Part shown: positions 2,212 through 22,926 of the stretch, one piece after another | Layout of the letters: each line of letters starts with the position of its first letter | Numbering within the stretch: position 1 is the first letter of the stretch | IMG/VR virus record: IMGVR_UViG_3300037067_026316 | Origin: an uncultured virus (IMG/VR IMGVR_UViG_3300037067_026316) | Lineage: Duplodnaviria > Heunggongvirae > Uroviricota > Caudoviricetes | Reading direction: 5' to 3' (one strand) | DNA length: 22,926 bases | Program-made: the position numbers and the translations under genes | The notes under the pieces: generated by a model | Databases searched by the model: none | Seen by the model: only the letters and a program-made list of their open reading frames with translations | Told to the model about the DNA's origin: nothing

Positions 2212-2733
2212 ATGAGAAAATTGTCTATGCTGCTGTTGTGGATTGTTCTCATAATCCATATGGCTGCTGCTGCAGAAGATCTAAAGGATATCCAAGTCTA
2301 CGCTAAGTACTACGCAAAGTATTCTATGGATAACCAAGATGCATTAGATGATTATCTAAATATTTCCTTCTTGCTGAAAGATGAAGGCAAGAATATCGCT
2401 ATAGATGGCAATTTTGTCATAATGGTAACGACAGATCGCGGGTTTATCTATGCTAAGGAGGTAGGATCTTTAAAATCATCTGATTTTGTAAAAAAAGTAA
2501 TAAGATGGCCTACAGATCAAGAGATAACGACCACAACTATAAGATCTCCTGAAATAAGCATCAATGGATCTAAATTCATTAATATAGAAATAAACAAAAC
2601 AAATGGAAAATACGAGAATCTAGGGCATAAAGCTCCCTATGGATCAGGAACAGTATCCATTGTATTTACAGATCAAGAAGGAACTCGATTTGTAGGAGAA
2701 TCTCGTATTCAATTCAGGGGTCCAAAGTACTAA
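2212..2733 (+). CDS. Secreted/surface hypothetical protein
   Basis: N-terminal MRK, hydrophobic stretch and AAA signal peptide. The stop codon directly abuts the GGYNN array. Confidence 0.7.
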   Translation: MRKLSMLLLWIVLIIHMAAAAEDLKDIQVYAKYYAKYSMDNQDALDDYLNISFLLKDEGKNIAIDGNFVIMVTTDRGFIYAKEVGSLKSSDFVKKVIRWPTDQEITTTTIRSPEISINGSKFINIEINKTNGKYENLGHKAPYGSGTVSIVFTDQEGTRFVGESRIQFRGPKY

Positions 2734-2935
2734 GGCAAGGTTCAAGGCGAGGCCGGGCGGGGCTAGGCAGGGCATGGGCTTGGCAAGGCAGGGCTGGGCT
2801 TGGCAAGGCAGGGCCGGGCCGGGCAGGGCATGGCTTGGCAAGGCAAGGTTCAAGGCGCGGCCAAGCTAGGCAAGGCAGGGCAGGGCTTGGCAAGGCAGGG
2901 CTTGGCAAGGCAAGGCAAGGTTCGAGGCGTGGTGT
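2734..2935 (+). repeat. GGY-NN pentamer array 1 (putative guide-RNA-like ncRNA array)
   Basis: Parsed by hand into 36 pentamers (34 GGCNN, 1 GGTNN, 1 AGCTA), 3 GGTTCRA heptamers (2739, 2847, 2919) and one extra G (2776), totalling 202 nt. It is a GC-rich island in an AT-rich genome. Confidence 0.9.
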
Positions 2936-4240: not shown

Positions 4241-7200
4241 ATGAAATCTAACAAATATTTAGAAGGACTTATTCGCGGCCTTCAGGAAAGAACTAAATGT
4301 TCTATGGATCTTTTTGGCATTGAGCCTATAGATCATGCTGAAGCAGAAAAAGTTGTAAAAATTGCTATGAAAGTTGCTGATCAATTACCATTTCTAGACA
4401 TAAACGAACAACTAGAGAATGAATTAATCTGTCAAACTTTAAGAAGTAGAGGACATGAAGAATATGCAAACATTTATAGTATGGTAGGAATACCAGTAGA
4501 AAATCTAATAAATACAATAACAGGTAACGGTTTTGAAGCAAGAGAGAATGCAAATTTACAAAACAATGCTGAAACATCGCATAAAAAGGGTGCAGATGAT
4601 TTATTTAAAAAATTCTATTTGAAACTTTTACCAATTAAAATTAAAGAAATGCATGAAAATGGAGATCTACATATTCATGATTTAGAATATTTTGGAACCA
4701 GGCCCTTCTGCATTCCAGATAATGAAATAGTTCTTAGAAGGAGAGATGGTAATGTACAGATAGCAGCACCAAGTACATGTCAGGTAGGCGATGAACTACA
4801 TACTAACGACGGATGGAACACTATTAAATTCATCACCAAAAGGCAATACAAGGGTGACTTGATAACTATTAGTACTGCCAACGGCGGAACGGTCACAACT
4901 ACGCCAGAGCACCGCATACCTACAACAAAAGGTATCAAACCTTGTAGCGATCTTATATTAAAAGATGAATTAATATCTACTAATGAAGATCATCATCTTC
5001 AAGGAAAAGAAGAAATATCAGAGATAGAAGCGCTATTCTTAGGAACCTACATAGCTGATGGACATTCTATAGGACGTTCTGATATTGGCTATCAAGTCAT
5101 AATATCTGACGATTCTCCTATATCTGAAAAAATAGTAAAAGATTTAGCTGCAAAAAGAGGATATAACTTATGCATTTCAAAGATACCTCATAAATGCCCT
5201 CAGTATATTATCTGCAGAAAGGAGCTGTATTCCGAATTAGTTGATAAATACGGCATCAATACAGGTGCTTTAAATAAATCTCTTCCAAAGAATATCTTCA
5301 ATATGCCCTTAGAAAGACAAAAAGATATCATAGCTGCTATGTTTCATGGCGATGGCGGTGTTTTTTACCAACCTAAAAAATCAAGCATAACAATTAATTA
5401 TACTACTATATCAAGAACGCTAATGAAACAACTTGGATTGTGGCTTACTCTAAACGGGATATCATTTAGAGTAAAGAAAAAAATGGTATCTGATGGTAGT
5501 AAATATTATATCAATTCTCAACTTATTAATTCACGGCATACTATCTACATAATACGCATAAATCGCGATGGACTAAAGAAGCTAAAGTTCTTAGGGAAAC
5601 AAAAAGAGCATGTAGAAAAGTATCTGTCAAATATCAATCAAATTCAACGCAAACCAAAGAAGAATAATATCATCTCAATAGAAAAAAATCAATTTGAGGG
5701 GAATGTTTACGACTTTGGTTTAGAAGGAGCTAATGATGATCCTCTAAAACATCAATTCTTAGCCGGAACGGGTGTAGTAATCAACAATTGCATGGACTGG
5801 GATCTACGCTATTTCCTCTACTATGGATTAATGCCTGATGGAAATGGAACTAAAGCTTCCGTGAGTGGGCCTGCAATGCATCCTGAAGTAGCCGTTCTAC
5901 ATGCAGTAAAAGTTTTAGGCAGCGCTCAGACAAACTTTGCCGGAGGACAAGGCTATTATAATTTCTTAACATTTTTAGCTCCTTATTTTCATCATTTACC
6001 CTACAAAAAGATAAAACAACTAATGCAAATGTTCGTTTTTGAGATGACTCAAATGATGGTTGCTCGCGGCGGCCAATTGGTCTTCTCTTCGGTGCAACTA
6101 TCTCCTGGGGTCCCTAGATTATGGAAGGATAAGCCTGTTGTAGCGTTTGGGAAATGCTTTGATGGCAAGAAAGAAAAAAGATGGGAGTATGGAGATCTGG
6201 AAGCTGAAGTAAGGCTAATGTTCATGGCTCTAATGGAAGTGCTCCTTCAAGGAGATTATTGGAACAAACCATTCAACTTCCCTAAACCTGAAATAGTACT
6301 TGATAAAGAATTTGTAGATAATATGAATGCAGAGTCTCCTTCTATCGATTCTTGTTATGAAATTGACAAACTACCAACATTTTATGATCTTTACCTTAAA
6401 GCGTTTGAATTATCAGCTAATACAGGCTCTCCTTACTTTGATAATTGCATACCAGATTATCGTAGCCCGATGGGTGGAGAAGGTATAGCTTGTTATCAAT
6501 GTTGTAGCTATAGATTTTCAACTTCAATAGAAGCTGATCCAGATTTTAGAGACAAACTTAACTTCAAAGAAGGCGCTCATTTTTCAATGGGTAGCTTCCA
6601 AGTAGTAACAATTAACATTCCAAGAATAGCATACAAATCAAAAGATTTAGATGAATGTATAGTAAACATCAAAAAAATGATGAAAGAATCAATGCAGATC
6701 TTCTATGCTAAGGCGTATTGGATGAATAAAATGAAAGAAAGCAATCGGATGCCCTTCATTTCTCAAAGACCCCATAATCCAGCCTGTAAGACATTAAAAG
6801 GCCCTGAGGCTGCAGATCTATCATCTCTAACATATATCTTCGGTATAGTAGGCTTAGAAGAAGCCGTACAGAGCCTTTCATGCATGAAGATGGAAGATTC
6901 TATTGAGGCATGGGAAATAGGCCTTACTATTGTCTCTGAGATGGAAGGCTATCTAGAAGAGCTGGAAAAAGAAAGTGGTTTTATACTGGCAATAGCCCGG
7001 ACTCCAGCAGAGACTGTAGCCGGAAGGTTTGCAGCCCTTGATCTGATGAATGAAGAAATAGTTTATCAAGCTATGGATGTTATAAAAGGAGATGTTGCAG
7101 GTTGCCTAGCAAAGATACATGCCTTTGGAGATAAAAGCACAGATCAACCGGTCTACTATACTAATGGTACTCATATACCAGTATCCGCTACTATATCTTT

Positions 7201-7543
7201 AGGAAAGAAAGCTGAAAGGGAAGGAGCATTTTTCCCCATATTAAGCGGCGGGAATATTATGCACATATTCCTAGGAGAGGAAACTCCTAACCCTGAGGCA
7301 CTAATGAGTTTTGCGCTTAAATTAGCTAGAGAGACTCCAGTAGGCTATTTTTGCTTTACCAGGGACTTTACTATCTGTCTCGATTGTGATAGAATATCTG
7401 CAGGGTTAAAAAATGAATGCCCCTTATGCAGGTCAGATAGGATAGACCACATCAGTAGAGTAACAGGATATAATCAAGCAGTTAGCGGCTGGAACAACGC
7501 AAAACAGCAAGAACTAAAGGATAGAATAAGATATACTTTGTAA
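4241..7543 (+). CDS. nrdD: Anaerobic (class III) ribonucleoside-triphosphate reductase, intein-containing
   Basis: ENAN, GDLHIHDLEY, QTNFAGGQG, FPKP, finger loop YQCCSYRF, RTPAET, YYTNGTH, GGNIMH, Zn site CLDC..CPLC and glycyl-radical loop SRVTGY. Confidence 0.95.
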   Translation: MKSNKYLEGLIRGLQERTKCSMDLFGIEPIDHAEAEKVVKIAMKVADQLPFLDINEQLENELICQTLRSRGHEEYANIYSMVGIPVENLINTITGNGFEARENANLQNNAETSHKKGADDLFKKFYLKLLPIKIKEMHENGDLHIHDLEYFGTRPFCIPDNEIVLRRRDGNVQIAAPSTCQVGDELHTNDGWNTIKFITKRQYKGDLITISTANGGTVTTTPEHRIPTTKGIKPCSDLILKDELISTNEDHHLQGKEEISEIEALFLGTYIADGHSIGRSDIGYQVIISDDSPISEKIVKDLAAKRGYNLCISKIPHKCPQYIICRKELYSELVDKYGINTGALNKSLPKNIFNMPLERQKDIIAAMFHGDGGVFYQPKKSSITINYTTISRTLMKQLGLWLTLNGISFRVKKKMVSDGSKYYINSQLINSRHTIYIIRINRDGLKKLKFLGKQKEHVEKYLSNINQIQRKPKKNNIISIEKNQFEGNVYDFGLEGANDDPLKHQFLAGTGVVINNCMDWDLRYFLYYGLMPDGNGTKASVSGPAMHPEVAVLHAVKVLGSAQTNFAGGQGYYNFLTFLAPYFHHLPYKKIKQLMQMFVFEMTQMMVARGGQLVFSSVQLSPGVPRLWKDKPVVAFGKCFDGKKEKRWEYGDLEAEVRLMFMALMEVLLQGDYWNKPFNFPKPEIVLDKEFVDNMNAESPSIDSCYEIDKLPTFYDLYLKAFELSANTGSPYFDNCIPDYRSPMGGEGIACYQCCSYRFSTSIEADPDFRDKLNFKEGAHFSMGSFQVVTINIPRIAYKSKDLDECIVNIKKMMKESMQIFYAKAYWMNKMKESNRMPFISQRPHNPACKTLKGPEAADLSSLTYIFGIVGLEEAVQSLSCMKMEDSIEAWEIGLTIVSEMEGYLEELEKESGFILAIARTPAETVAGRFAALDLMNEEIVYQAMDVIKGDVAGCLAKIHAFGDKSTDQPVYYTNGTHIPVSATISLGKKAEREGAFFPILSGGNIMHIFLGEETPNPEALMSFALKLARETPVGYFCFTRDFTICLDCDRISAGLKNECPLCRSDRIDHISRVTGYNQAVSGWNNAKQQELKDRIRYTL
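4709..5788 (+). mobile_element. Intein with LAGLIDADG homing endonuclease in NrdD (360 aa)
   Basis: Begins CIPDNE after TRPF. Block B TTTPEHRI, LAGLIDADG motifs FLGTYIADG and IIAAMFHGDG, block F VYDFGL. Ends VINN with +1 Cys. Excision restores TRPF-CMDWDLRYF. Confidence 0.92.
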
Positions 7544-10558: not shown

Positions 10559-11287
10559 TCAAACACAAGGTAACCAATCTACGCTTATAGCGCCGCAAGT
10601 AGAGTTGCCCCATAGCTGAATGAACTTGTTAATAGCAAAGACTCCAGTCAAATCATCTACTGATCTACCATACTCAGCATGGCGGCCTTTAAGCAATCTA
10701 TCAGGTTCAGGATTTCTAGATATCCATCCAATGTGAGCAGTACCTATTACATTGCTGTTAATGTTCGCTTCAAGGACTCCAGTGCAGCAGTTCTCTACAC
10801 AAGCATTGTCATACCCTCTAGTCTTTATCTCAGTAGTTCTCTGCAGGTGCTCAGCATGGGAATACATCTCAGTAAGAACGGCTCCTATCCTATAATTCTG
10901 TACACATAGCTTGTCTACCCATTTTGCATCATAGGTGCCGGTCTGATATGAGATAGGCATATACTCAAACTCAGCATCTTTGGTAAAGTTAATGTAATCC
11001 ATTCCACAGATATTAGGGTAGGTACAATTCATCTTAGCTCCATCCCTATCGAGCTGCCGCTCAACTTCCAATTCAGTATTAAGCGTGATTACATTACCAG
11101 AACCAGCAACTTTTTCAACCAACTTCTGACCCTTGAATCCAGTCTGAGTTTGAACAATCTTCTCCTGTTCAAGATATCCAACTCCTTTTATACTAGACTT
11201 TTCATACATATAATTAGATGCTCCGGAGATGCTTATCCCGATAGTAAAAAGGGATAGCAAAACCAGAATCATAAGCAATTTCCTCAT
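10559..11287 (-). CDS. Secreted Cys-containing hypothetical protein
   Basis: GGAGATGAG RBS, signal peptide MRKLLMILVLLSLF, eight Cys in the mature part. Confidence 0.75.
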   Translation of the reverse strand: MRKLLMILVLLSLFTIGISISGASNYMYEKSSIKGVGYLEQEKIVQTQTGFKGQKLVEKVAGSGNVITLNTELEVERQLDRDGAKMNCTYPNICGMDYINFTKDAEFEYMPISYQTGTYDAKWVDKLCVQNYRIGAVLTEMYSHAEHLQRTTEIKTRGYDNACVENCCTGVLEANINSNVIGTAHIGWISRNPEPDRLLKGRHAEYGRSVDDLTGVFAINKFIQLWGNSTCGAISVDWLPCV

Positions 11288-13468: not shown

Positions 13469-13534
13469 GGCTGAGATAAAGCTGAGAAAAAGTTAAGATA
13501 AGACTAAGAAAGGAATAAGATAGGACTGAGAAAA
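13469..13534 (+). repeat. Six imperfect 11-bp tandem repeats (iteron-like)
   Basis: GGCTGAGATAA AGCTGAGAAAA AGTTAAGATAA GACTAAGAAAG GAATAAGATAG GACTGAGAAAA. Confidence 0.55.
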
Positions 13535-13756
13535 TAAGAAGAAGATGGAATACACATAAAATAATAAAAAACTATCTATGTGAATGAAGAATCAAACTAA
13601 AAAATGTAAGATAGATATTGAGTTAGAACTGAATAGAAAAAGTTAGGAAGCTCGTAAAATGCCCGTAAATCAACGATCTCTCTGGAAGGTAGAGGGTTGC
13701 CCGGAAAAAGGGAAGAAATGCCCGGAAAGAAAGGATAGGATGGTAAGGAGAAGGTT

Positions 13757-18029: not shown

Positions 18030-18530
18030 ATGGCTAGAAGAAAGCATATAAGGCATGTGGTTGAGGGTAGTGGGCTGGCAAGTTTAATCTTGGAATATCC
18101 CCAGGGATCAGAGCCTGCAACTATCGCTCAATGGCTGAATGAATCATATGGAACTGAATTCACTAGAGCTCATATAGAGGGCTTTCTACTAAGGGCTAGG
18201 AAACCAGGATATAAAGAAGCAATCCTGAGGTCGGAGATTGCTGAGACAGAGCACGTATTATCTAACTCAATAGATACGTTGGATGATATTATCGAGGATG
18301 CAAAATCTGTAGGCCCGAATTTTAGAAAGGATACATGTCAGATCCAGATTAATGCTATACTTGCCATGGGGAAGCTAATCAAGGATCGACGACTATATCT
18401 TAAAGAGCGCTTAAAGCTCTATGAGCTGCAGCAGTCTAAAGGGGATGTAGACATAGATCTTACGCCGTATCCACCAGAGATAGATATTAATGGTGAAACT
18501 CCACCACCGCTTAATCCAGAGATGCTATAG
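18030..18530 (+). CDS. Helical protein with N-terminal HTH-like segment, candidate terminase small subunit
   Basis: GAGGT RBS. ATIAQWLNESYGTEFTRAHI is HTH-like and is followed by long helices. It is the last convincing gene before terL, so the assignment is positional. Confidence 0.45.
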   Translation: MARRKHIRHVVEGSGLASLILEYPQGSEPATIAQWLNESYGTEFTRAHIEGFLLRARKPGYKEAILRSEIAETEHVLSNSIDTLDDIIEDAKSVGPNFRKDTCQIQINAILAMGKLIKDRRLYLKERLKLYELQQSKGDVDIDLTPYPPEIDINGETPPPLNPEML

Positions 18531-18917
18531 TTTTAATAATATGAATGTTATATATGTACGTATATGGGTGAGGTATACTACGTATAACTTATAGGCTCTT
18601 ATGCCTTTGACATAGTAGCTTATAAGTTATAACATTTTTATAAATATGTTTTCGGCTCGATAACCATAGGTGTACGCGGTGGGAAATGGTGTTATCGTGA
18701 ATCGATAGCAGTAGACTAAAGGAATCGCTATGAGAGAGTTGATCAAGTACAATTGTGTTTGATTCTATAGACTATGGAATAGCGAGGTTGCCAGAAGTGC
18801 TTTTAGGGTGCTTTTGCCTTTAAATCATAGCTGTAGGAATTGGTACATATAACTTATAGATAATGACCTCGGGAATTGGTATGTTTTAGTAGATATTAAA
18901 AAACAATTGATATCAGT

Positions 18918-18963
18918 AGACTTAAATTAGTTCGTTGCTAAAACAATGAACTAATTTAAGTCT
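18918..18963. other. Long hairpin / inverted repeat in the intergenic region upstream of terL
   Basis: AGACTTAAATTAGTTC / GAACTAATTTAAGTCT are perfect 16-bp arms, extendable to 20 bp with one G-U pair, leaving a 6-nt loop. Confidence 0.75.
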
Positions 18964-19494
18964 TGCAATTTTATTGAGAGGCTGGAGGATTAAAGGCCTT
19001 GGGAACAGGCTGCTATTTTATCTGATCTTCTGCAGGAGACCGGAGTATGGTATATTCGACAGCAGTAGACGGCACGAATCGAAATACCAGCACCGGGAGG
19101 GGTTTTTTAGTAAGACAAAGATATGGTGGGGTGGGGAGTCCTGAGGGGTACAAAAATCCTACATACATCTTTAGAAAATAGACTAATACTATATAAATAC
19201 TTATATTATAGTACACATCTACAACTAGTTATAGCTTTTTGAAGAGTTGAAAAAAGGAAGGACTTAAATTTGTATGTCATAAAAGATGGTTATGTGACGT
19301 ATAAAGGATTTTGTGTGTTATAGATTACTCATAAAGGAAGTATATAGAAAAAAATAAAATGTATATAGTGCTATATATTTTTTAAATTATATGTTTATTT
19401 CTGTAGTTATTATATAACAACAAAAATTTTTACTAAATTTTTAATATTTTTCAAACTCATATAGATTACATTTACTATACTATATCTATGAGAA

Positions 19495-21145: not shown

Positions 21146-21835
21146 ATGGCTTTCAAGAAAGAGAATGAGATCCCTGATAATGGGTATATAGATCTGCAGA
21201 TTGCGGCACCAATAAAGTATATTGTGAGCATTGTAGGACAATCAGATATTCTATTTAATCGAATGATAGATCAATCTGAGACTCCTGCAGAAGGAGTTTT
21301 AAACGGAAGTAAAAAGAGTGCAATTACAAAGGACAAAGCAGAAGTTGAGAGGCAGATCTGGAGGGAGAAGGCATACTTCAGACCAGAGAGTGAAGTTCTG
21401 TATATCCCAGGAGAGAACATTCATCAATGCATGGTAGATGGGGCTTCCTACTGGGGTATGACTATACCAGGTAGAGGAAAGACTCAGTATACAGGAGTGG
21501 TAAAGGCTGGAGTTATTTGCCAGGATATAAGCCTTGCAACATTGGATAGCGAAGGAAACTACGTTGAAGCAACAAAGGCTGATCTGGTTAGCTTCGGAAG
21601 GTCTGTGAATGGTACTCCTACTAAAGGAAAAGGAAGTAAGGTTTATAGAATCCGTCCTTCGCTGGAAAGCTGGAATGGAACATTCCTAATGACAGTTATA
21701 GATGCCCGTCTTACTCCTCAGATTTTGAGAACAATAGTCTCATATGCAGGCCTATATAGGGGTCTAGGGGATTGGAGGCCTAACCATGGGCGCTTTGAGC
21801 TGGAGCACCTGGGAGAAGTTATGGGTAAGGCATAA
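21146..21835 (+). CDS. Stand-alone RAMP/Cas7-like protein (putative RNA-guided effector)
   Basis: First strand IVSIVGQSDILFN. LYIPGENIHQCMVDGA resembles the RAMP YIPGSSxKG motif. RIRPSLESW-x-GTF strand. C-terminal Gly-rich loop AGLYRGLGDWRPNHGRF. Confidence 0.75.
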   Translation: MAFKKENEIPDNGYIDLQIAAPIKYIVSIVGQSDILFNRMIDQSETPAEGVLNGSKKSAITKDKAEVERQIWREKAYFRPESEVLYIPGENIHQCMVDGASYWGMTIPGRGKTQYTGVVKAGVICQDISLATLDSEGNYVEATKADLVSFGRSVNGTPTKGKGSKVYRIRPSLESWNGTFLMTVIDARLTPQILRTIVSYAGLYRGLGDWRPNHGRFELEHLGEVMGKA

Positions 21836-21863
21836 GCTGCCCATACCTTTTTAGGTGGTTTTT

Positions 21864-22646
21864 ATGAAAGAGTTGTCTTCGGCAGATACCAAAGAGCTTG
21901 TTAATTTGTATATTGAAGAGCTCGGACAGACTGGAACGGCTAGAAAGCTTACAGAACTTGGATATAGGAGCCCTGAAGGTTCTTCAATTTTACAAGCACA
22001 TATACATAAAATTATGCATGGAGCAAATATTTGCCTTTTAGCTCCTGAGAAAGAGCAGCAACTTAAGGATGTTATAGAAAGTAAAGAACAAACTCAGATA
22101 GATATTTGGGCTCCTTATGATCCATTCATCCCTAATAAGCGTATAAGGAGTCCACAAGATATCATAGAAGATGCTGCAAATTGGATAAATGATGTGGTTT
22201 GTAAAGTTAAGATGTATGGAGAAGTTCCTAAAGGAGAAATACAATTTACTCATATCTTAATGTCAAATCTTCTTGAGGTGAATTATATTCCTGGTAGAGT
22301 AAATAGAGTCTACTATGACTTTGTAACTGATCTTAGGGTAGTTTTGATGAAAAAGTATGGTATTTCTCTTAGGACCTTAAGATTTAGGTGTTCAGCTAAT
22401 GGGGAGACTGGCGGCTATGCTGTAGAGACTAGAGGGCAATTTTCTTATGTAAGTCAGCTTTTGGATAAGATGGTTAGTTATGGGTCTCGCGCATCGATGT
22501 ATATATCTCAAATAGAGGCACGGCAATTGGAAATTCAAGATCCTCAACTTAAGGAGAGAATTCAAAGAATTAGGCCTCAGCTTCTTGGTATGAATGAAAA
22601 ACTAGGGACTTCTAGGATACGTATCGGCAAGAGGGAGAATTTATGA
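21864..22646 (+). CDS. Hypothetical protein with N-terminal HTH-like domain, co-operonic with the RAMP-like gene
   Basis: AGGTGG RBS before ATG 21864 (track start 21855). TARKLTELGYRSPEG resembles the DNA-binding helix motif of recombinase/HTH domains. Confidence 0.6.
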   Translation: MKELSSADTKELVNLYIEELGQTGTARKLTELGYRSPEGSSILQAHIHKIMHGANICLLAPEKEQQLKDVIESKEQTQIDIWAPYDPFIPNKRIRSPQDIIEDAANWINDVVCKVKMYGEVPKGEIQFTHILMSNLLEVNYIPGRVNRVYYDFVTDLRVVLMKKYGISLRTLRFRCSANGETGGYAVETRGQFSYVSQLLDKMVSYGSRASMYISQIEARQLEIQDPQLKERIQRIRPQLLGMNEKLGTSRIRIGKRENL

Positions 22647-22846
22647 GAAAATCAAGTGTAAAGTTAGAGCTTAATGGTGAGGAAAGGTTGTTGTTTACTA
22701 AACCTAGATTAAGACAAATTGATAGCAATGGACGGGTATTTGTGTCTAAGAATTATGTTGGCAAAGAGGTTCTAATGTTGTTAATTGATCCTATAGATGA
22801 GGATTTTAAGAACTTCAATCCTATAGCGAAGACTTACATCTTGTGA
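22643..22846 (+). CDS. Small AbrB/DUF2080-like swapped-hairpin DNA-binding protein
   Basis: RQIDSNGRVFVSKNYVGKEVLMLL. ATGA-coupled to the upstream gene. Confidence 0.6.
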   Translation: MRKSSVKLELNGEERLLFTKPRLRQIDSNGRVFVSKNYVGKEVLMLLIDPIDEDFKNFNPIAKTYIL

Positions 22847-22862: not shown

Positions 22863-22926
22863 GGCAAGGCAAGGTTCAAGGCCTGGCATGGCTAGGCTAG
22901 GCAGGGCAAGGCAAGGCAAGGCAAGG
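22863..22926 (+). repeat. GGY-NN pentamer array 2 (truncated by the window end)
   Basis: GGCAA GGCAA GGTTCAA GGCCT GGCAT GGCTA GGCTA GGCAG GGCAA GGCAA GGCAA GGCAA GG. Same delimiter as array 1. Confidence 0.88.

Follow-up and report, generated by a model that had tools for sequence, protein, structure and literature searches.

The closest described relatives of the locus analysed here are the VIPR systems, reported in four preprints (bioRxiv 10.64898/2026.04.26.720920, 10.64898/2026.04.26.720927, 10.64898/2026.10.15.759431 and 10.64898/2026.10.21.760802), beyond which our literature searches found no VIPR work. According to the accessible text of these preprints, the VIPR system of phage SUSP1 has one Vipr protomer per pentamer, as determined by cryo-EM (bioRxiv 10.64898/2026.04.26.720927). 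The NN bases pair with the DNA target, with every third base skipped (bioRxiv 10.64898/2026.04.26.720920, 10.64898/2026.04.26.720927), and competing elements are silenced transcriptionally (bioRxiv 10.64898/2026.04.26.720920, 10.64898/2026.04.26.720927, 10.64898/2026.10.15.759431). The legend of fig. S18 in Yoon et al. 2026 (bioRxiv 10.64898/2026.04.26.720920) further describes staggered, tail-less, processed vrRNA arrays whose guides overlap by 1 nt. In its accessible text, the VIPR literature is silent on how tail-less arrays are cut into guides and on how guides arise.

A VIPR locus at the end of a virus record

The window, that is, the whole 22,926-nt stretch of DNA that was analysed, forms the terminal 22.9 kb of an uncultured-virus record of 84,926 nt (IMG/VR IMGVR_UViG_3300037067_026316; here C1), in which terminase, primase and tail genes are present. 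The ends of the record are repeated: C1:3-4383 corresponds to C1:80549-84926 over 4,381 nt at 99.3%, and the match is exact over the final 4,269 nt. The two copies (window 18500-19000; C1:3-114 versus 80549-80657) diverge in their first 114 nt and are identical thereafter. The host is likely Methanothrix, because a 242-aa protein with a signal-peptide-like start, encoded at window 10559-11287 on the minus strand and found in 21 IMG/VR loci, is 76-77% identical to Methanothrix proteins.

At the right-hand end of the window, vipr is followed by a 263-aa ORF, a 67-aa ORF and array 2:

21146..21835, plus strand: vipr, 229 aa, RAMP fold
21855..22646, plus strand: candidate accessory (vap) gene, 263 aa, with a sub-threshold match only, to the Recombinase DNA-binding family
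22643..22846, plus strand: 67-aa ORF between the vap candidate and array 2, no family match
22863..22926, plus strand: VIPR guide array 2, consisting of two lead pentamers, a delimiter at 22873-22879 and further pentamers, ending at the window edge

The product of ORF 21146-21835 had no Pfam match, and 15 homologs of it were found. A profile of this protein and its homologs matched SUSP1 Vipr (PDB 36pp_D) with E=1.1e-22, and tblastn with the protein recovered the SUSP1 gene directly, at about 26% protein identity. The predicted model (mean pLDDT 74) matched the Csm3/Cmr RAMPs with a Z of 12.2 and an rmsd of 2.9-3.6. Residues R170, D209, W210 and R211 were invariant in 16 of 16 sequences and align with R138, D177, W178 and R179 of SUSP1 Vipr, which according to the accessible text contact the GGY bases (bioRxiv 10.64898/2026.04.26.720927). 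A homolog of the vap candidate (69%) adjoins vipr in L081, the closest relative of the locus (75% Vipr identity).

By the definition given in bioRxiv 10.64898/2026.04.26.720920, the arrays and vipr form a VIPR system. Known Viprs are small RAMPs with an RRM core, a thumb and a G-loop, and the protein here is homologous to them by profile match, fold and invariant residues; the arrays are intergenic YNNGG (GGY/NN) tandem repeats with variable NN, which in VIPR systems number about 9-16 per guide; and the locus is minimal and lies in a virus record, with vipr and an accessory gene and without a CRISPR-cas operon. No cas1, cas2 or cas6 was recognised among the tested ORFs of the window. Like the type II VIPR of SUSP1 (PDB 36pp), as far as the accessible text describes it, the locus has a homologous Vipr with the same RNA-binding residues, guides of 9-16 pentamers, an accessory gene 3' of vipr and arrays that flank these genes. 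In contrast, SUSP1 guides are spaced by at least 60 nt and carry a pseudoknot tail, whereas the excess here is 2 nt; the SUSP1 Vipr, at its low identity, lies on another branch of the tree, and the host here is likely archaeal. The structured ~40-nt 3' tail per guide that marks type II systems is absent, and the units abut via a 7-nt step.

Guide arrays interrupted by a 7-nt step

Array 1 begins immediately 3' of the stop codon of ORF 2212-2733, 18 kb from vipr:

2734..2935, plus strand: VIPR guide array 1, consisting of a lead pentamer, two units, a closing heptamer and two trailing pentamers
2739..2745, plus strand: delimiter 1, GGTTCAA, 6 nt past the stop codon of ORF 2212-2733
2746..2846, plus strand: body of unit 1, 20 pentamers, with one 6-nt step at 2771-2776
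2847..2853, plus strand: delimiter 2, GGTTCAA
2854..2918, plus strand: body of unit 2, 13 pentamers (one degenerate), the last three GGCAA
2919..2925, plus strand: delimiter 3, GGTTCGA, which closes array 1

A preliminary description of this DNA had reported a 17-mer pattern at 2732, 2840, 2912 (in a G variant) and 22866. All four occurrences are exact and lie on the plus strand, and the pattern is absent from the minus strand. The heptamer GGTTCRA within it had been said to shift the 5-nt register by +2, and the heptamers at 2739, 2847, 2919 and 22873 are indeed 7-nt steps in the GGY/NN lattice. The unit lengths of 108 and 72 nt had also been given correctly; what had gone unmentioned is the 6-nt step in the 108-nt unit, whose extra base is missing from contigs of two of four sequencing runs, where the unit measures 107 nt (7 + 20 x 5). 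One array-1 contig from other runs skips 46 nt of unit 1. The units of the window hold 11, 14 and 21 dinucleotides (NN), unit 1 with its 21 lying above the usual range, and the arrays show internal duplication with a 20-nt period.

Array 2 reaches the window edge within a run of (GGCAA)4GG, after which a further GGTTCRA had been predicted. Read through the first copy of the terminal repeat, GGTTCAA starts four bases past the edge (C1:4387, window-equivalent 22930), as expected, and closes a 57-nt unit. A third array-2 delimiter, again GGTTCAA, lies at C1:4462 and is followed by three decayed pentamers, so that all six heptamers in the window virus read GGTTCRA. L082, which was assembled independently and encodes an identical Vipr, agrees in flanks, delimiters and closure, but with 12 pentamers versus 10 and other dinucleotides. 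A contig of run X1 spans array 2 at the length of the record; those of X5, X6 and X7 are one pentamer longer, judged from coordinates. The first unit of array 2 varies among strains by whole pentamers (57, 62 and 67 nt) while the delimiters are kept. Downstream of array 2, about 400 nt past the window edge, L082:8111-8181 matches the Rfam DUF3800-X RNA at 58.5 bits (gathering score 38.2).

Conservation of the register break in homologous arrays

The preliminary description had made its case depend on finding such a delimiter in homologous arrays as well; the register break was found there, with a clade-specific sequence. The close set comprised 23 loci, L088 being left out as a duplicate of L004, and was searched with the first two G's fixed. 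Strict register breaks were present in 13 of these loci and numbered 52, 47 of them 7 nt long and five 6 nt long. Among the 47 breaks of 7 nt, position 3 was T in 22, A in 22 and C in three, position 4 was T and position 5 a pyrimidine in all 47, and positions 6-7 were variable. A regularity of this kind is not a chance effect. The pentamer preceding the break, locally GGCAA, also varies among homologs. The idea of the 17-mer or GGTTCRA as a fixed conserved element therefore did not survive: homologs in the close loci keep only GG-[T/A/C]-T-Y, and the 17-mer is the window lineage's version of a shorter signal. A stricter delimiter pattern, with AA before and RA after, had no match in IMG/VR, which agrees with a lineage-specific 17-mer.

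Scanning IMG/VR for the break itself yielded 22 loci from 19 contigs. In 18 of them a Vipr homolog lies no more than 2.5 kb away, and the scan contributed the further forms GGAAC, GGAGC and GGACC. Across 147 closed units of the wider set, the openers were GGTTC (47), GGATC (42), GGAAC (15), GGATT (14), GGTTT (9) and others. What is invariant is the +2 step, namely GG, two extra bases ([T/A]-x), then YNN, and the varied linker sequence argues against a single sequence-specific cutter.

The linker forms were compared with a FastTree of 167 Viprs, which is to be read as clustering only because kin share linker labels. The clade of the window Vipr has 18 rows with a support of 99: nine GGTTY, two GGANY, four with a single break and three unlabelled. 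A second clade carries GGANY in 10 of its 11 rows, and 9-nt linkers mark 10 of the 11 rows of a third; SUSP1 Vipr falls outside all three. The 9-nt linkers (L029, L045, L051, L065, L078, L157 and relatives) are of a GG-R-W-W-T-Y-NN type and shift the register by -1. Within L081, the stretch 1659-2018 contains repeated 6-nt steps inside units together with duplicated units. These steps are perhaps tolerated bulges, and because they recur, not every register slip is a delimiter.

Judged from the legend of fig. S18, the published staggered arrays resemble those described here in their GGY/NN pentamers, their Vipr RAMP, the lack of tails and the way in which the end of one guide adjoins the start of the next. 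They differ in having a 1-nt overlap where the window has a +2 step, and the two fit only if guides are read in different registers. The 1-nt overlap does fit directly the 9-nt (-1) linkers of the other Vipr clade, which are probably the published 1-nt staggered form. On the strength of that legend, the concept of staggered arrays, which could also cover the +2 break, is probably already known.

A fragment of another virus in array 2

The 75-nt unit between the second and third delimiters of array 2 is not pentameric, with two pentamers followed by a foreign stretch:

C1:4404-4457, window-equivalent 22947-23000, and L082:7812-7865: 54-nt foreign fragment, antisense to a baseplate gene

When searched against 50,697 phage records, the fragment matched Caudoviricetes sp. 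vir525 (BK063673.1; host Methanosarcinales) with 94.4% identity and E=5e-15. It lies antisense to the vir525 baseplate gene, of which it covers roughly codons 30-47, and its three differences leave the translation unchanged. The baseplate proteins of the window virus and vir525 share only 33% identity, and apart from the reverse-transcriptase region the two viruses have no DNA match besides the fragment. It was not found in plasmids, nor by an exact 22-mer in IMG/VR. An assembly chimera was rejected, as individual contigs of X5, X6 and X7 run from one flank through the insert into the other with no other letters. In X1, X6 and X7, further contigs carry the stretch with 0-3 differences and run on into sequence like that of vir525, which shows that these samples contained a vir525-like virus. 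The position of the fragment is unlikely to be due to chance because the arrays make up about 0.4% of the genome, although this is a single case that was noticed post hoc. A screen of the fetched loci for similar inserts returned mostly structured spacers or coding flanks and no second case; it also missed the known one.

The fragment may have been left behind by recombination, may serve as a contiguous antisense guide or may be an intermediate of acquisition, and could hint at the way in which sequence enters VIPR arrays. It identifies a probable competitor among the viruses of methanogens and opens the question of acquisition to testing. A wider proposal is that the delimiter-bounded unit serves both processing and acquisition, the fragment being either the raw intermediate of a gapped guide or a second, contiguous antisense kind of guide. 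We consider this unlikely; if true, it would be the first trace of a gain of target information by VIPR arrays and a bridge to CRISPR-like spacers. Setting the vir525 fragment aside, the locus is an ordinary VIPR member with a well-defined array grammar.

The heptamer family and a contiguous foreign insert occur neither in the main text nor in the methods or legends of bioRxiv 10.64898/2026.04.26.720920, whose figures and Data S1-S4 may bear on both; 'GGTTC' is absent from the text of its supplement. The accessible text of bioRxiv 10.64898/2026.10.15.759431 contains no 'stagger', 'processing' or 'GGTTC', and the heptamer family and the contiguous insert do not appear in the accessible text of that preprint or of 10.64898/2026.04.26.720927 and 10.64898/2026.10.21.760802.

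Units as guide-sized blocks and their proposed processing

Closed units from 20 close sources hold 9-16 NN in 63 of 72 cases, which matches the published vrRNA range, and some are long (17-22 NN). As the preliminary description had noted for the window, variability is highest just after the delimiter: over these 72 units it amounts to 3.7 bits at the first three positions and falls to 3.0, 2.6 and 2.4 at the last three. In 32 loci, 15 of which had been chosen for an internal break, the break opens 34 of 41 arrays versus 4 of 41 control windows; at array 3' ends the signal is weak, with 25 of 41 versus 15 of 41 looser controls. The break lies 1-18 nt past the vipr stop codon in 11 of 25 hand-picked loci, a distance too short for a promoter, and the arrays likely belong to an upstream mRNA, from which they would have to be excised. 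A scan for promoters of the sigma-70 (non-archaeal) type and for terminators stayed at chance level. No conserved fold was found at the delimiter (z -2.9, 0.2, -1.7 and 0.4, with differing structures), and no stable fold 3' of the last delimiter of array 2 (z 0.39).

CRISPR direct repeats are 23-50 nt long, are processed by Cas6 and flank unique contiguous spacers, in systems with a RAMP-family effector. The delimiter had been proposed as their functional analogue, and the likeness holds in part: a constant element, found with a RAMP-family effector, brackets variable guides and likely sets their ends, splits the arrays into guide-sized units, recurs and often opens arrays. It does not extend to the element itself, which has seven bases versus 23-50, varies by clade, forms no stable hairpin and accompanies a gapped code. 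The conserved core is 5 nt, and the DNA between delimiters is pentameric save for the one unit with the 54-nt foreign piece. In the hammerhead-interspersed VIPR arrays, as described in the accessible text on fig. S19 of bioRxiv 10.64898/2026.04.26.720920, guide ends are likewise set by a signal built into the array between the guides. The window arrays, unlike those, have no ribozyme-sized spacer, and Rfam found no ribozyme in L082:7500-8300.

From these sequence patterns we think it probable that the +2 break, which separates guide-sized units, ends the Vipr filament and that the precursor RNA is cut there into single guides. The array would be transcribed within the upstream mRNA. Two extra bases could not be bridged by Vipr protomers, and each unit would acquire a separate filament; the short linker, mostly A/U-containing, would lie exposed and be cut, either by a host nuclease or by Vipr, each unit giving one guide. 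The structured 3' tail of SUSP1 guides would be replaced by the break together with the last two or three pentamers, whose diversity is low. Once free, guides would steer Vipr against competing Methanothrix viruses, whose genes it would silence, and the rival-virus fragment in array 2 may point to one such competitor. Against this reading stand the null target searches described below, which weigh most and leave an end of pairing at the break a supposition, as well as the weak 3'-end signal, the variable linker sequence, the long units (unit 1 of the window among them) and the 6-nt steps of L081. The clade-specific 7-nt break offers a parsing rule for the guides of many arrays and, if the inferred role is true, would make it possible to multiplex VIPR guides compactly, with two bases spent on each.

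Other readings of the break were weighed against this one. It is rather unlikely, in our judgement, that the break bounds filaments and does no more, the array staying one long, uncut RNA on which several independent Vipr filaments have their own targets. A linker whose sequence varies while its length is constant within a clade would suit such a role, as would the absence of a conserved hairpin at the delimiter, and one protomer per pentamer makes a register break a natural stop. However, a break at the array start after a stop codon would be needless, since the repeats simply begin there, and is better explained by a release site; the published staggered arrays, moreover, are described as processed. 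The delimiter and the near-constant pentamers before it could also have their main role in the DNA itself, providing homology arms or sites of recombination for the gain, loss or swap of units and the entry of foreign DNA. Low diversity in the last 2-3 pentamers, units duplicated within the L081 and L083 arrays, length variants of whole pentamers, and a rival-virus fragment between two delimiters that is the genome's only short vir525 match outside the reverse-transcriptase region are in keeping with this. Yet there is one captured fragment, with no second clear case in a screen that also missed the known one, and its junctions lie 10 and 4 nt away from the heptamers, not at them. A mainly DNA-level role appears quite improbable to us, and it would be compatible with processing.

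The consensus of the tRNA T-loop resembles GGTTCRA, and the heptamer might mimic it and recruit RNase P or Z. All six copies in the window virus fit, and L036 and L039 carry structured spacers between guides with a GTTCGA-like loop. Among the 47 homologous heptamers, however, just eight have A at position 7 and 22 have A at position 3; no closing stem is predicted, and ARAGORN found no tRNA in L082, L036, L039 or L021. T-loop mimicry, very improbable in our view, was rejected on the variation of the homologous heptamers and the ARAGORN negatives. The structured spacers just mentioned (L036:4793-4885 and L039:9841-9900) lie between VIPR guides and are without an ARAGORN tRNA despite their T-loop-like motif. 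Neutral slippage, leaving a functionless scar propagated by unit duplication, would agree with the internal duplications of 20-nt period and the strain length variants. It leaves unexplained a 7-nt step with conserved positions 4-5 at loci whose Viprs are only 38-75% identical, as well as the regular spacing and the presence at array starts, and we consider such a scar very improbable.

Search for guide targets

Guides were compared with candidate targets under different numbers of skipped bases, and in the collections covered no unit had a target above control level. A 1-nt skip performed no better than 0 or 2 nt, either with 81 units against 4.5 Mb or with 140 units against 5.2 Mb. Unit 2 of the window gave no hit in an exact scan of IMG/VR and none among 21 virus records with 3 mismatches allowed. 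A seed scan with unit 1 gave 14 matches; on extension, 13 of them agreed at 2-9 of 24 bases, whereas L310 reached 14 of 24. L310 was rejected as a target: it is the best of 14, and the skipped base coincides with codon position 2 of its long ORF. Guides of the window, L081 and L082 stood at control level against 1.3 Mb of Methanothrix-virus-like loci, vir525 and baseplate regions, and because of the result for the baseplate regions the 54-nt fragment is not regarded as the target of a present guide. Homolog guides hit one of 133 genomes versus one control, and 0 of 36 in two further scans.

Other features of the virus record

Several features of the record lie apart from the arrays. An anaerobic ribonucleotide reductase gene at window 4241-7543 contains an intein with a LAGLIDADG domain, and a 22-nt tandem repeat of 3.1 copies occupies the intergenic stretch 13474-13542 upstream of the primase gene. 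The record has a 100-N gap at C1:24827-24926. The reverse transcriptase region at C1:17399-18826 is 66% identical to its vir525 counterpart, and a repeat pair of 82% identity lies in tail-type genes at C1:15334-15589 and 23665-23920. Together, the reverse transcriptase region and the tail-type repeat pair are likely a diversity-generating retroelement.
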